From: an uncultured bacterium
GTDB lineage: Bacteria; Omnitrophota; Gorgyraeia; Ghiorseimicrobiales; Ghiorseimicrobiaceae
Length of the DNA: 64,000 bases
Reading direction: 5' to 3'
Assembly (NCBI GenBank): GCA_913009335.1
Contig: CAJVXN010000005.1
Location: forward strand, 110 to 64,109
Both the position numbers and the translations under genes were made by a program. Positions 13,524-17,422 of this stretch are shown here, one piece after another (position 1 is the stretch's first letter; each line of letters opens with the position of its first letter). The notes under the pieces are model-generated. The model was not told where the DNA came from, did no database searches, and saw only the letters and a program-made list of their open reading frames with translations.

Positions 13524-14624
13524 ATGATCGATCTTTTCTACCCGTACGTTCCAAAAGAGGCTATAGATGCTGTAACTGATGTTCTGCGTTCACGATTTAT
13601 CGGCCAAGGCCCCAAAGTGGACCAGTTTGAAAAAGACTTTAACAAGTTCTTCCATTTAAACCACTCTGTAGCCCTAAATTCAGGCACTTCGGCTTTAGAC
13701 ACAGCATATGACCTTGTGGGCCTTAAACGCGGGGATGAGGTAATATGCACGCCATTGACGTGTACTGCTACGAACCTTCCATTATTGCGGCGCGGAGTTA
13801 AGATAATCTGGGCCGATGTTGATCCGGATACGCTTTGTATCGATTATAATGATATAAATAGGAAAATAACGGACAAAACCAAAGCAATAGTACAAGTTCA
13901 TCTTGGCGGCATTAAGGCAGGCATGGGTAAATACAATTTTTTCAAAGAAGGAGTTTTTACTCAACGTAAAAAGATTCCAATTATATCGGACGCTTGCCAG
14001 GCCCTGGGGATTTTTTCGGGCGATATGACAGCGTGTTCATTCCAAGCTATCAAACACATAACCACCGGAGATGGCGGAATGATAGTGTTAAATAATAGCA
14101 AAGATGAGAAAGATGCTAAGATGTTAAGATGGTTCGGGATTGATAGAGAAAAGAAAATCGCGAATAACTGGCAGGCATATAGAGAACGCAAGATGACGTT
14201 TGATATTGATCTTCCCGGGACTAAGCGGCATATGACAGATATCTCGGCCGCTATGGGAATTGCCGCGCTTAAGCACTATAGGGAAGTTATAAAACATAGG
14301 AAAAAGATATTTAATATATATAGAAGGAAATTATGTAACATCCCAGGTGTAATGAGGATCGTAGATGGTGAAGTCAATACATATTGGCTCGCTACATTAT
14401 TGGTTGAGAATAGAGACGGTTTTGCACGCATGCTTTTCGACGCTGATGTTGATACGAATGTAGTACAGGTCAGAAATGACATTTATCATGTATTCGGAGG
14501 TAAACGAGAAAATCTTATGGTAATGAATAGTATTGAGGAAAATTATATAAGTATCCCTCTTGGAATGCATGTTTCTGAAGAAAACGCAGAATTTATCTGC
14601 CAAAAAATAAAGGGAGGTTGGTGA
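13524..14624 (+). CDS. DegT/DnrJ/EryC1/StrS-family PLP-dependent sugar aminotransferase
   Basis: NSGTSALDTAYDLVGLKRGDEVICTPLTCTATN...; DACQALG; PLP-lysine region SFQAIKHITTGDGGMIV. Confidence 0.85.
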   Translation: MIDLFYPYVPKEAIDAVTDVLRSRFIGQGPKVDQFEKDFNKFFHLNHSVALNSGTSALDTAYDLVGLKRGDEVICTPLTCTATNLPLLRRGVKIIWADVDPDTLCIDYNDINRKITDKTKAIVQVHLGGIKAGMGKYNFFKEGVFTQRKKIPIISDACQALGIFSGDMTACSFQAIKHITTGDGGMIVLNNSKDEKDAKMLRWFGIDREKKIANNWQAYRERKMTFDIDLPGTKRHMTDISAAMGIAALKHYREVIKHRKKIFNIYRRKLCNIPGVMRIVDGEVNTYWLATLLVENRDGFARMLFDADVDTNVVQVRNDIYHVFGGKRENLMVMNSIEENYISIPLGMHVSEENAEFICQKIKGGW

Positions 14625-17422
14625 TGGAATGTCCGATATGTCAAAAAAGTCTAGGTAACTTTAATGAAGAGATAGTTAGCCATTTAGCGGTTTTCAAAGG
14701 TGCAAGTGGAACCAATCATGTACACGGTCCTATTGAAGATAAAGAAGTGATAAAAGAATTTACGCATGATATTTTATCGCATGCAGGATTAGAGAATGAT
14801 TTTAAAGAAGTATCCGCAAGTGGGATAAATCGTAAAGAGATAGTATTCCGTAACCGGCAGCGGATAGGTGATATGCTGATGTTCACTTGTGCCATTAGAG
14901 ATTTTAAAGCGGCGTTTCCTAAGGTGCGAGTAAATATTCTTTCTACAGCAATGCATATCTGGGATCATAATCCTCATATTGATAGAACATTATTACATAC
15001 AGAAGAAAATATTGTTAAGATAGGCCCAGGGAAACTTACCAATGCATCCAATAGATTAGACTGGCATTTTGCTAACGCATATAGATTATCGATAGAAGAT
15101 GCGCTCGGAGTATCTATTCCTCAGGGATTATCTCGGCCGGATATCTGGTTGACAGAAGAAGAATTTAATGCGCCGCCGGTTGAAAAACATCCATATTGGA
15201 TAATTGTCATCACGGGAGAAAAAGGCTGGGGATGTAAAATGTATCCTTTTGAAAAGTGGCAAGAATTCATTACTCTGAATCCTGATACATTATTTTATCA
15301 ATTAGGAACTCGCGAAGACAATCCTCCAAGACTGCAAGGGAATAATGTTGTTGACTATGTTGGCAAGACACAAGATAAGAATACAGGCATACGTGATTTA
15401 TATAAATTATTTTTAAACGCGGAAGGATCAATAGGCCTTGTTAGTTTTCATATGCATTTATCAGGAGCATTATATAAGCCGGCAATTGTCGTTGCCGGCG
15501 CGCGGGAGCCTGTATCGTTTACAAGATATGAAGGCCATAGGTATTTATCAACTGATGGCTGCTTACCTTGTGCAGTGAAAGCCTGTTGGCATTGTAATAT
15601 TGATACTTGTTCTAATTTGGTTGGAAATAAAGTTCCGAAATGCGTTGATATAATTACTCCGCAGGATTTAACAAATGCTTTGAATAGTTATTATATTGGC
15701 GGTCGATTAGTCAGAAGTAAACAATCTGCCAAGCCTAAGGAATTTAAGAATATAGTCAAGACTCCCGATAAAGCACCTGAAAAAATTACTACAGAAGTGA
15801 AGGTAAAAGATAGGGATAGGCAAAAAAACGATGCGGAACTTATCGCCTGGCGTTCTCAATTCGGATATCCATTTGATAGTGGAAGCATACATTCAAAAGA
15901 TTGGATATTTCTTGAGAAAATAATTGATGAAAATAAGATTAAGACAATAGTAGAATTTGGCGTGGGCCTTTCTACGTTATTAATGCATAAAAAAGGTATT
16001 AATGTTATTTCATTTGATACTTATCCAAAATGGATTGAAAAAATACATAAAATAAATCCTGATTTAGATATACGCCTTTGGGATGGTATTGATATAGATA
16101 AAATAAAAGAGCAGTTAGCAACATTGACAATCGATATGGTTTTTGTAGATGGGCCTTCCGGCGGGCAGACAAGAGGGCCATCTACTCAATGCGCTTCTGA
16201 AATATCTGATATAGTCATTATCCATAATTCATATGGCAGCGATGAAAAGAATTGGCAGGAGATGCATCTTGAAAAAGAATTTGATGGCCCTGAAAAAGGC
16301 GGCCGTTGGAATGGAACAAGTCTTTGGGGAAGAAAACTTGGAAATATAAAACTCGCGCCGCTTGAACCTAAAACAGAGAAAGAAAGCGATGAACTTAGAA
16401 AACTTGAAAGAGTAGTTATTGCCGCTGGATTTCAACAAACAATAAAGATAGTATCTACTGCTCGCGGGTGGGGCGGTTGCGCTAGATCTATTACGACTAT
16501 AATGAAATATTTATTAGCGGCCGGCCACAAGGTAGAATTTATTCCTTTCCGCAATAAAGTAAGCAGCAGGGAATTTAAAGAGATATTAAAGACAGATCTT
16601 AAAGATGTCAAAGTAACGGAAGATTATGAAACATTGCATGAAAGCTGCGATGTCTTATTTGTTTACGCTGATGATTTTGTTTGGGAATTTACTACTCCGG
16701 AAATGGCAGAGGTATTTTCTTCTTTAAATGCTGATAGGAAGATAATGATGTTGAACTATCGCAGAGGCAAGGTAGGCGAAATTGAATGGACTAAAGGTTG
16801 GGATAAATATATGTTTTTGAATTCATCTCAGGAGAAGGAATTACTTAAAAAGCTGCCGGAATCTAAAACAAAAGTCCTTGCGCCATGTACAGATTTGAGT
16901 GAATTTTTAAATGTCGGGATTGATTTTGCCGGAAGCATAAGATTAGTGAGGCATAGCTCTCAAGGAGATACTAAATTCGCGAAAGATTTCGGCATTGAGG
17001 TAGAAAATATTCTTAATTCAAGAAACGATTTGAATATGTTTTTCTTACCGGGGCCTTCTTTTATATCTGATACAAATAGGATTATAAAATTCAAACGTAC
17101 AGCCGAAGCAAAAACAATAGCAAATTTTTTAACAGCAGGAAACTTATTCTGGTATTCACTCCCTAAAGGCTATATGGATATGGGTCCGCGCGTTATAATT
17201 GAAGCCCTCGCTGTAGGATTGCCGGTTATTGCGGACAATTGGGGCGGCGCTGTGGATCGTGTAACGCCTGAATGCGGATGGCTTTGTAATAGTAAAGAAG
17301 AAATGGTACAGATTATTAAAAATGTAACAGTAGCAGAATTGGAAAAGAAAGGCAAAGCAGCCCGTGAAAGAGCAATAGCTGAATTTATCCCGGAGAAATG
17401 GATTAAGGAAATATTATGCTGA
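14618..17422 (+). CDS. multidomain glycosyltransferase: N-terminal Cys/His motif, GT9 (heptosyltransferase-like), class I methyltransferase-like, GT4/GT1 domain
   Basis: GT9-like RIGDMLMFTCAIRDFKAAFPKVRVNIL and SFHMHLSGALYKPAIVVAGAREP; MT-like IVEFGVGLSTLLM ... VFVDGPSGG; GT4-like RVVIAAGFQQ ... EALAVGLPVIADNWGG. Confidence 0.75.
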   Translation: MVMECPICQKSLGNFNEEIVSHLAVFKGASGTNHVHGPIEDKEVIKEFTHDILSHAGLENDFKEVSASGINRKEIVFRNRQRIGDMLMFTCAIRDFKAAFPKVRVNILSTAMHIWDHNPHIDRTLLHTEENIVKIGPGKLTNASNRLDWHFANAYRLSIEDALGVSIPQGLSRPDIWLTEEEFNAPPVEKHPYWIIVITGEKGWGCKMYPFEKWQEFITLNPDTLFYQLGTREDNPPRLQGNNVVDYVGKTQDKNTGIRDLYKLFLNAEGSIGLVSFHMHLSGALYKPAIVVAGAREPVSFTRYEGHRYLSTDGCLPCAVKACWHCNIDTCSNLVGNKVPKCVDIITPQDLTNALNSYYIGGRLVRSKQSAKPKEFKNIVKTPDKAPEKITTEVKVKDRDRQKNDAELIAWRSQFGYPFDSGSIHSKDWIFLEKIIDENKIKTIVEFGVGLSTLLMHKKGINVISFDTYPKWIEKIHKINPDLDIRLWDGIDIDKIKEQLATLTIDMVFVDGPSGGQTRGPSTQCASEISDIVIIHNSYGSDEKNWQEMHLEKEFDGPEKGGRWNGTSLWGRKLGNIKLAPLEPKTEKESDELRKLERVVIAAGFQQTIKIVSTARGWGGCARSITTIMKYLLAAGHKVEFIPFRNKVSSREFKEILKTDLKDVKVTEDYETLHESCDVLFVYADDFVWEFTTPEMAEVFSSLNADRKIMMLNYRRGKVGEIEWTKGWDKYMFLNSSQEKELLKKLPESKTKVLAPCTDLSEFLNVGIDFAGSIRLVRHSSQGDTKFAKDFGIEVENILNSRNDLNMFFLPGPSFISDTNRIIKFKRTAEAKTIANFLTAGNLFWYSLPKGYMDMGPRVIIEALAVGLPVIADNWGGAVDRVTPECGWLCNSKEEMVQIIKNVTVAELEKKGKAARERAIAEFIPEKWIKEILC

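Follow-up and report, generated by a model that had tools for sequence, protein, structure and literature searches.

The window analysed here, the whole 64,000-nt stretch between positions 110 and 64,109 of contig CAJVXN010000005.1, is a tailed-phage, siphovirus-like genome. Just upstream of its packaging genes lies a co-oriented cluster of sugar-related genes, and within this cluster a single gene encodes the three-enzyme fusion protein that is the subject of this work (Table 1). As the initial annotation had noted, the open reading frame (ORF) listing of the window has it on the plus strand at 14618..17422, where it encodes 934 aa if read from a TTG codon. The likelier start is, however, the ATG at 14624, which shortens the protein to 932 aa. 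The start region reads AAAGGGAGGTTGGTGATGGAATGT, in which a Shine-Dalgarno sequence (GGGAGG) lies 6 nt upstream of this ATG and the ATG shares bases with the TGA that ends the preceding DegT gene (TGATG overlap). Moreover, homologues start M-x-C-P-x-C, and an identical public protein (P0001, a "hypothetical protein" of Candidatus Omnitrophica bacterium on a 66,997-nt contig) is 932 aa long. All residue numbers are counted from this ATG.

An alignment of 62 full-length homologues divides the protein into four conserved blocks with variable, indel-rich linkers between them. These blocks agree with the domains and disordered linkers of an AlphaFold2 (AF2) model of the full fusion built with the same alignment (mean predicted local distance difference test, pLDDT, 86), in which the low-pLDDT stretches are aa 61–66, 385–395 and 575–600. 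The predicted TM-score (pTM) of 0.49 suggests that the domains are flexibly tethered. In agreement with the initial annotation, three enzyme-type modules follow a small Cys/His module in the order GT9-like glycosyltransferase (GT), methyltransferase-like and GT4, and the catalytic or cofactor motifs are kept in all three. Plain Pfam and NCBIfam models did not yield the domain boundaries, since they gave only sub-threshold or weak matches (the heptosyltransferase III model TIGR02201 at aa 83–124, E 0.0028), and a PHROGs scan of the fusion found no match. The domains were therefore assigned by profile and structure methods, which resolve the four blocks and support the predicted four-part architecture with high confidence. 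No transmembrane segment was found in the fusion protein (maximum KD19 1.35), which argues that it is cytoplasmic, where virions assemble; the phage most likely produces it as a soluble multi-enzyme protein of the cytoplasm.

The Cys/His module is modelled by AF2 as short strands and a helix, with low to moderate confidence. Among the 62 homologues C3, C6 and H34 are invariant and H32 is present in at least 90%, the consensus around H32-x-H34 being H-I-H-V-H-G. The module is missing from the non-fusion relatives and from L015, the most divergent fusion, and docking or oligomerisation are possibilities for its role.

For the domain that follows, a separate AF2 model of aa 1–385 (pLDDT 79, pTM 0.76) was compared with the PDB by Foldseek. 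Ranks 1–30 were all GT9 enzymes (E 6e-10 to 4e-8; next match 1e-5), including a Veillonella structure (3tov), TibC (4rb4/4rap), WaaF (1psw) and WaaC (2h1h/2gt1/6dfe). TibC superposes best, with TMq 0.53–0.56 and a root-mean-square deviation (rmsd) of 4.8–5.1 Å, whereas the lipopolysaccharide (LPS) enzymes reach 0.44–0.50 and 6.7–9.1 Å. The GT9 family model PF01075 has no match in the window protein, and relatives from the same clade pass its cut-off of 22 bits (P0210 36.2, P0139 23.2, P0187 128.6, L085 33.2). When a profile of the domain that included the non-fusion relatives was compared with E. coli WaaC/WaaF by hhalign, 245 columns were aligned (probability 97%, E 1.8e-10), placing D83 on the WaaC catalytic base D13, K205-M-Y-P on K192-H-W-P and H278 on H266. 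Across 26 diverse members of the GT9-like clade, neither D83 nor K205 varies; the catalytic Asp is found about 12 residues into the domain, and the phosphate-binding Lys is conserved. The corresponding residues of TibC are D110 (catalytic) and K230 (phosphate-binding; PMC4358343). Judged by profile and model, the N-terminal catalytic domain is a divergent GT9.

The C-lobe of this domain carries an insertion with four cysteines that are invariant in 26 sequences, non-fusion relatives included. The fusions have C324/H323 in addition, and a loop or insertion of variable length separates C329 from C340. In TibC, an iron finger formed by Cys339/342/358/370 is inserted in the C-lobe of the catalytic domain (PMC4358343). 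The two clusters occupy comparable places and differ in spacing (x4/x7/x10 here and x2/x15/x11 in TibC). The Cys4 cluster of the fusion is a candidate metal finger resembling that of TibC.

The middle domain is methyltransferase-like, as indicated by profile searches, predicted topology and motifs. A profile of the full-length fusion matched 3ntv (E 5.5e-5) and also 2yvl in the PDB, and a profile of the middle domain alone, which included four stand-alone relatives, matched 3ntv (6e-6), 2yvl (0.004), 3r3h (0.009), 8k1f (0.026) and 4pca (0.07). These matches are led by class-I S-adenosylmethionine (SAM) methyltransferases, chiefly of the cation-dependent O-methyltransferase type; 3ntv alone is clearly significant, and chains other than methyltransferases appear at E ≥0.06. 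The alignments span motif I to the FDxxFVDG strand, and motif I falls on motif I of 3ntv, 2yvl and 3r3h. A single-sequence PDB search with the middle domain returned noise only, and Pfam had no match for it in the window protein or in the four stand-alone relatives. AF2 places its elements (E441-H449-E460-H468-E482-H491-E505-H515-E530-H539-E553-E565, pLDDT >90) in the canonical order β1-αA ... β5-αE-β6-β7, with a terminal β6-β7 hairpin. Conserved positions are motif I ([LV]EFGxGLST, 443–451), E/D465 at the end of β2, W486-D-G and F-V-D509-G-P. D509 and D535 would be the acidic metal or catalytic residues that follow β4 and β5. After β5, the window copy reads I-H-N-S-Y-G at aa 534–538 (16223–16237) where the family has V-H-D-A-x-R; the near-invariant D535 is replaced by Asn in this copy only (1/62), and two further positions of the HDAxR motif are changed. 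A recent duplication of one of the adjoining methyltransferases as the origin of the domain was ruled out, as their likeness by HMM and hhalign is at the level of motif I only.

The C-terminal domain is a GT4, again judging from fold, profile and motifs. When the full-length model was searched with Foldseek, 47 of the 48 best matches were GT4-type GT-B enzymes (BshA, PglA, HepE, GlgM, PimB') with E values of about 1e-12; a capsule multienzyme (8qoy) ranked 9th and TibC 49th. The GT4 part of the fusion profile matched 2jjm in the PDB (E 2.5e-6). In the window protein this domain stays below the Pfam gathering thresholds (PF00534, 20.8 vs 26.4 bits; PF13692, 20.2 vs 27), and precomputed matches to both families are present in many homologues. 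The motifs TARGWGGCARS, D852-x7-E860 and WGGxxDRV are invariant or near-invariant; D852-x7-E860, itself invariant, is a conservative variant of E-x7-E.

Homologues of the fusion were numerous. One search gave 377 matches, more than 120 of them listed as full-length at 50–66% identity, and a representative library clustered at 50% identity gave 613 matches at E ≤1e-30, well in excess of what chance would produce. All full-length homologues are encoded on phage contigs. In contrast, tblastn against 50,697 GenBank phage records found no match to the fusion at 1e-5, a motif scan of 185,579 representative bacterial and archaeal genomes found no homologue, and BFVD held only uncharacterised GT9-like proteins of uncultured phages and a 985-aa protein of "Virus NIOZ-UU157". 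Each module also occurs as a separate protein in the representative library, next to the combinations GT9+GT4 and GT9x2+GT4+Methyltransf_24 (MT_24), and other phages carry GT9+MT_24, a fusion of MT_12/23 with a GT9-like domain (MT+GT9) or a stand-alone GT9-like gene beside a gene with two MT_24 domains. This Rosetta-stone pattern of modules found both separate and recombined suggests that they act in one pathway. The initial annotation had called the architecture unusual, which holds in comparison with characterised enzymes but not within phages, where it represents a common, conserved family with split and shuffled variants. One homologue of 1290 aa (P0122) contains an intein with a LAGLIDADG homing endonuclease near the start of its GT9-like domain.

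In the window, the gene cluster runs from a DegT/PseC-like 4-aminotransferase gene through the fusion, a 118-aa ORF, an MT_24 gene, a CmcI/rhamnosyl-O-methyltransferase-like gene, a second MT_24 gene, two uncharacterised paralogues and a 175-aa ORF to an MT_23 gene. The best NCBIfam model for the DegT gene is PseC (2e-54, below cut-off). For the two paralogues, no match was found in Pfam or the PDB even by profile. Invariant D75, H107, N139-G-D141 and E213 point to an enzyme, and the spacing of the motifs hints at a GT-A-like fold. Across 22 fusion loci, DegT accompanies the fusion in 19, the MT_24 genes in 14 and 12, and each of the paralogues in 17. The packaging and structural genes of the window are shared by none of the other fusion loci, which argues that the cassette is mobile. 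DegT is present at 22 of 30 tri-domain loci but at 1 of 46 loci that have the GT9-like domain only. Just upstream of the cassette, the phage also encodes a DnaJ-domain protein (12090–12440) and a Cpn10/GroES co-chaperonin (12639–12944).

Long poly-Ser tracts are present in at least six plus-strand ORFs of the virion module, and the proteins that carry them are candidate acceptors of a glycan (Table 1). They are found as C-terminal tails on two small ORFs between the capsid and tail genes, on a putative major tail protein and on a DUF2460 tail protein, as an insert in a J-like central tail fibre, through which the reading frame is maintained, and within a 912-aa repeat protein directly downstream of the cassette. 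The assignment of the putative major tail protein is by position, as it has no Pfam or PHROG match, and the capsid protein (32247–34850) has no poly-Ser tract. The tracts draw on all six Ser codons, of both codon families (AGT 217, TCT 197, TCA 197, AGC 182, TCC 72, TCG 39), which speaks for selection acting on the amino acid and against triplet slippage. The repeat region of the 912-aa protein (23657–25100) consists of about ten 44-aa repeats with the consensus ...GISWDGTNTPWCG..DKLYLQSGQFSSTLKTSL..., arranged in two blocks with a poly-Ser tract after each; homologues of this protein were seen only in L011/L012.

The enzyme and the poly-Ser tracts occur together well beyond the window. A poly-Ser ORF on the same strand lies within 10 kb at 20 of the 22 fusion loci, which range in guanine-plus-cytosine (GC) content from 33 to 60% and include unrelated phage backbones (gp25-baseplate, SU10-capsid); it is lacking only from a fragment of 4 kb and from the most divergent member. 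Relatives of the window portal with at least 60% identity and more than 10 kb of sequence all have poly-Ser ORFs, whereas relatives with at most 47% identity have neither poly-Ser (0/25) nor, in the stretch examined, the enzyme (0/25). In a wider sample of the GT9-like clade, a poly-Ser/Thr ORF lies within 10 kb at 46 of 80 loci compared with 0 of 25 controls (Fisher p 4.6e-8, ignoring relatedness), and 12 more of the 80 are copies of one relative phage of 63.8 kb in which the tract is about 12 kb away.

These 63.8-kb relatives (portal about 69% identical) have a 973-aa protein in which 859 residues, about 88%, are Ser and the short ends are non-repetitive (L025 4589–7510, corresponding to L079 13720–16644). 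DegT, the fusion and the GT4 module are not in the stretch examined; instead, the syntenic site, which follows the homologues of Cpn10 and ORF144, encodes a 605-aa protein with a GT9-like domain (HMM E 4e-57) and a bona fide Methyltransf_24 domain. In the window, this 144-aa ORF likewise follows the Cpn10 gene. A 280-aa ORF of the same phages (L025:867–1709), picked by eye as GT9-like, was dropped (no Pfam match, hhalign E 0.0065), and their actual GT9-like gene is further upstream. The GT9-like module is retained in every relative that has poly-Ser or poly-Ser/Thr tails, in most cases together with a methyltransferase, and DegT, GT4 and further genes represent an extended version. In L042, whose portal is 56% identical to that of the window, poly-(Ser/Thr) tracts of the STTSTT type occupy the positions of the poly-Ser tails of the window, which suggests that the conserved property is a run of hydroxy amino acids; the edge of this contig cuts the enzyme region.

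Table 1. Features of the fusion gene, its cassette and the candidate acceptor proteins, with positions in the window except in the last row.
Feature	Position	Strand	Basis or remark
DegT/PseC-like sugar 4-aminotransferase, translationally coupled to the fusion	13524..14624	+	PF01041 E 1e-72
Three-enzyme fusion gene, complete, 932 aa	14624..17422	+	ATG start; TTG 14618 is two codons upstream
CCHH mini-domain, aa 1-55, C3-x2-C6 ... H32-x-H34, putative Zn-binding	14624..14788	+	conservation
GT9-like GT-B glycosyltransferase domain, aa 70-380, proposed Ser-O-glycosyl priming module	14831..15763	+	fold, hhalign, relatives
Cys4 cluster C316-x4-C321-x7-C329-x10-C340, C-lobe insertion of the GT9-like domain	15569..15643	+	candidate metal finger
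Class-I SAM-methyltransferase-like domain, aa 405-572	15836..16339	+	profile vs PDB, AF2 topology, motifs
GT4-type retaining GT-B domain, aa 603-932, proposed extending module	16430..17419	+	fold, profile, motifs
Stand-alone MT_24	17769-18362	+	Pfam/NCBIfam
Stand-alone CmcI/rhamnosyl O-methyltransferase-like	18362-19057	+	Pfam/NCBIfam
Stand-alone MT_24	19005-19733	+	Pfam/NCBIfam
Two distantly paralogous conserved ORFs, 349 aa and 306 aa	19730-20779; 20947-21867	+	
912-aa protein with 44-aa tandem repeats and two poly-Ser tracts (~340 Ser-rich residues), candidate acceptor	23657..26395	+	directly downstream of the cassette
Large terminase	27929-29518		
Portal	29511-30899		
Protease-capsid fusion, 867 aa: single ORF joining a head-maturation protease-like region, a long charged coiled stretch and the major capsid protein	32247-34850		
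Two small ORFs, 179 aa and 104 aa, with C-terminal poly-Ser tails, candidate acceptors	35349-35888; 35899-36213	+	between capsid and tail genes
Putative major tail protein, C-terminal poly-Ser tail, candidate acceptor	37519..38517	+	position only
Tape measure	39751-41712		
DUF2460 tail protein, C-terminal poly-Ser tail, candidate acceptor	41731..42423	+	
J-like central tail fibre, internal poly-Ser insert of ~200 aa, candidate acceptor	43680..47528	+	
Poly-(Ser/Thr) tracts of L042 (positions in L042)	1-738; 8915-10129; 10149-10919; 11946-12944		including the C-terminus of the putative major tail protein homologue

Besides the genes in Table 1, the window encodes a BR0599 tail protein and, on its other arm, a helicase, a primase, an endolysin-like protein and an RNA ligase. 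At 10386–10416, 10545–10592 and 10716–10760 there are tandem 11-mers, TGTGGATAAGC (x2.8) and the inverted GTTATCCACAG (x4.1), with the DnaA-box core TTATCCACA. Situated on both sides of an AT-rich repeat, they coincide with the strand switch and with the minimum of the cumulative GC skew (10–12 kb), and this region is a candidate replication origin. A DNA methyltransferase gene on the minus strand (54231–55703) is split by an HNH endonuclease-like insert (HNH at aa 152–286), with PHROG methyltransferase matches at both ends.

On balance, we favour the reading that the fusion primes, methylates and extends O-glycans on the poly-Ser tails of virion proteins in the cytoplasm, and we hold this role of the enzyme with moderate confidence. 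From the folds, the catalytic motifs and the gene associations described above we infer the following scheme for acceptor and donor sugars, sequence of steps, bound metal and biological function. The GT9-like domain, with D83 as base, K205 as phosphate-binding residue and the putative Cys4 metal finger, would transfer a sugar from a nucleotide sugar to Ser hydroxyls of the poly-Ser tails and inserts of the tail and tail-fibre proteins, the two small virion-module ORFs and the 912-aa repeat protein. This step would take place in the host cytoplasm before or during assembly, much like the heptosylation of autotransporter Ser by TibC/AAH. The tethered methyltransferase-like domain would then O-methylate the first sugar, and the GT4 domain would add a further sugar, probably a 4-amino-6-deoxy sugar made with the co-translated DegT aminotransferase. 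Finally, the stand-alone methyltransferases and the two uncharacterised paralogues would finish the glycan, leaving the virion covered by a dense, mucin-like coat of glycans. The GT9-like module is proposed as the initiator because it is the sole constant partner of the tails, is TibC-like and is cytoplasmic without a transmembrane segment. Methylation is placed on the first sugar because the pairing of GT9-like and methyltransferase domains arose repeatedly, and the sugar added by GT4 is probably a 4-amino-6-deoxy sugar because DegT co-occurs with the forms that contain GT4. The suggestion of the initial annotation that the enzyme starts a glycan on Ser thus gains comparative support from the poly-Ser proteins of the virion module, the constant retention of the GT9-like module and its TibC-like fold.

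Several observations weigh against this reading. Plain Pfam found nothing above threshold in the window protein for any of the three modules. With regard to the GT9-like domain, GT9 structures other than TibC tie with it by Foldseek E-value, so that the claim of a TibC-like enzyme rests on TM-score, rmsd and the Cys cluster, and TibC is absent at E ≤1 from the search of PDB sequences with the profile of the 62-homologue alignment. The heptose-binding D261 of WaaC aligns with the invariant V273 (in a single profile-profile alignment, with no structural superposition), which suggests that the donor may not be ADP-heptose; likewise, the cassette contains no heptose-pathway genes. In the window copy, D535N may impair the methyltransferase-like module. 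As for the association with the tracts, the locus comparisons cover 10 kb on either side and the co-occurrence statistics ignore phylogeny, and a low-GC (33–39%) subclade of tri-domain loci (L105–L109, L112, L115, L118–L120, L123) has no poly-Ser/Thr ORF within 10 kb, suggesting either that the acceptors are further away or that these enzymes have other targets.

The roles of the two glycosyltransferase domains could be reversed, with GT4 initiating Ser-O-glycosylation of the virion tails and the GT9-like domain extending it. The fold assignment of GT4 is strong, the order of steps cannot be read from sequence, and GtfA of the serine-rich repeat protein (SRRP) pathway is a GT4 enzyme that places GlcNAc on the Ser-rich repeats of adhesins. 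Nevertheless, phages that have poly-Ser and no GT4 near the GT9-like gene keep only the GT9-like and methyltransferase modules, and under a GT4-first scheme nothing would start the glycan in these systems, except if an enzyme of the host or a gene elsewhere took over this step; we consider such a scheme quite unlikely. It is also conceivable that one or more of the modules are non-catalytic and, in particular, that the middle domain is a spacer or a sugar- or SAM-binding scaffold within a bifunctional glycosyltransferase, as its lack of a Pfam match in any member and the D535N and two further HDAxR changes of this copy (1/62) would allow. However, motif I, the acidic residue of β2, WDG and FVDGP are intact in the window copy, conservation across the family is high, and the independent fusions of GT9-like domains to bona fide MT_24 or MT_12 argue that methylation belongs to the pathway. 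Moreover, Asn can replace Asp as an Mg2+ ligand in cation-dependent O-methyltransferases of the COMT type. Loss of catalysis in a module is thus unlikely.

Two further explanations dispense with the poly-Ser proteins as acceptors. The cassette could modify a glycoconjugate of the host envelope during infection (LPS core or O-antigen, teichoic acid or capsule), for example in receptor masking or superinfection exclusion, the poly-Ser proteins being unrelated. The classical role of GT9 enzymes is the transfer of heptose to the LPS core, and by E-value the N-domain matches WaaC/WaaF no worse than TibC. O-antigen clusters typically contain GT4, DegT and sugar O-methyltransferase genes, and some tri-domain loci lack a nearby poly-Ser/Thr ORF. 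Yet the cassette genes scanned with Pfam/NCBIfam include no flippase, polymerase, ligase or membrane-anchored component, and the fusion itself has no transmembrane segment. The strong, lineage-specific co-occurrence with poly-Ser/Thr (0/25 in controls) would also be left aside, and the absence of homologues from the 185,579 representative cellular genomes is unexpected for an enzyme of an envelope pathway, all of which makes this explanation rather unlikely. Alternatively, the cassette might serve the hypermodification of phage DNA by a methylated or aminated glycan, like the phage clusters that glycosylate 5-hydroxymethylcytosine (5hmC). A fold similar to that of BshA/MshA is also seen in phage GT-B enzymes acting on 5hmC DNA (bioRxiv 10.1101/2023.12.21.572611), and the window encodes a DNA methyltransferase. 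This gene is, however, 37 kb away on the other strand, neither the surroundings of the cassette nor the scanned ORFs revealed a 5-methylcytosine dioxygenase/TET, a hydroxymethylase or a nucleotide kinase, and the association with poly-Ser/Thr would be left unexplained. DNA hypermodification was therefore rejected as the leading explanation for want of TET- or hydroxymethylase-type genes among the scanned ORFs, and we regard it as very improbable.

If glycosylation of poly-Ser tails is the function of the fusion, it may be part of something broader. We tentatively propose a phage-restricted "mucin-coat" system, in which environmental tailed phages of many lineages would coat long poly-Ser or Ser/Thr tails on their tail, fibre and other virion-module proteins with methylated amino-sugar O-glycans by means of the Cys4 GT9-like clade; this generalisation is plausible but less secure than the role of the fusion itself. 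The tri-domain fusion would then be the most elaborate form of a previously unrecognised GT9-like clade of Ser-O-glycosyltransferases. To our knowledge, direct evidence of glycosylated phage particles is confined to a few mycobacteriophages, and Ser-O-glycosylation of proteins by GT9-type enzymes to E. coli autotransporters. The clade would thus provide the first GT9-type protein glycosyltransferases outside the bacterial autotransporter heptosyltransferases (BAHTs), and would represent a general way in which phage particles are shielded by glycans or made to adhere. Many uncultured phages with GC contents of 29–60% and with gp25-baseplate, SU10-type capsid or siphovirus-like tails would carry a dense glycan brush, which would bear on host adsorption, adherence to mucus or particles, protease resistance and immune recognition. 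A large family of "hypothetical proteins" would gain a function and an annotation signature, namely the Cys4-containing GT9-like clade together with poly-Ser/Thr ORFs, and a compact, soluble enzyme that primes, methylates and extends on a simple poly-Ser acceptor would be attractive for glyco-engineering.

A literature search on phage poly-serine or on heptosyltransferase-based glycosylation of virions returned nothing relevant. Already known are phage virion glycosylation, in mycobacteriophages, and Ser-O-heptosylation by GT9-type enzymes, in the BAHT family. The BAHTs TibC and AAH (4rap/4rb4) share with the fusion a GT9-type GT-B fold, the catalytic Asp, the phosphate-binding Lys, a comparably placed Cys4 cluster late in the C-lobe and a cytoplasmic location, and the TibC acceptor is modified on many Ser residues of a repetitive protein (PMC4358343). 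TibC has an N-terminal β-barrel of 97 aa where the fusion has a CCHH module of about 55 aa. The phage-encoded fusion further differs from it in lacking sequence-profile likeness, in the Cys spacing and in its additional methyltransferase-like and GT4 modules, and its presumed acceptors are disordered poly-Ser tails rather than the β-helix of the TibC system. WaaC and WaaF (CAZy GT9, PF01075) resemble the fusion in fold, in a profile match over the whole domain and in the equivalents of D13, K192 and H266. In contrast, the window sequence falls below the PF01075 threshold, has a Val aligned with D261 and an extra Cys4 insertion, and belongs to a phage gene without LPS-pathway context.

Capsule and teichoic-acid polymerases, such as that of Actinobacillus (8qoy), also combine several glycan-building domains in one polypeptide. 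They superpose poorly overall in the case of 8qoy, have other domain types in another order without a GT9-like or methyltransferase module, and build free polymers on lipid anchors. The glycosylation of serine-rich-repeat (SRR) adhesins by GtfA/GtfB of Gram-positive cocci is likewise a dense cytoplasmic O-glycosylation started by a soluble GT-B enzyme of the GT4 type and continued by extending transferases, some of them multi-domain. Here, the constant enzyme is GT9-like and not GT4, no GtfB-like partner or accessory Sec genes are found among the annotated genes, and the proposed targets are proteins of the virion module instead of SRR adhesins. The closest precedent on the side of the virion is that of mycobacteriophages, for which phage-encoded glycosyltransferases and glycans at the C-termini of capsid and tail-tube subunits are reported (Freeman et al. 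2023, as cited in PMC12619734). As in those phages, C-terminal tails on tail and virion-module ORFs, here of poly-Ser and candidate sites of glycans, are encoded beside a glycosyltransferase cassette. The phage described in this work differs from them in that its capsid protein has no tail, its homopolymeric Ser tracts reach several hundred residues, its GT9-like enzyme is fused to methyltransferase-like and GT4 domains, and the hosts of such phages are environmental bacteria of low to high GC.

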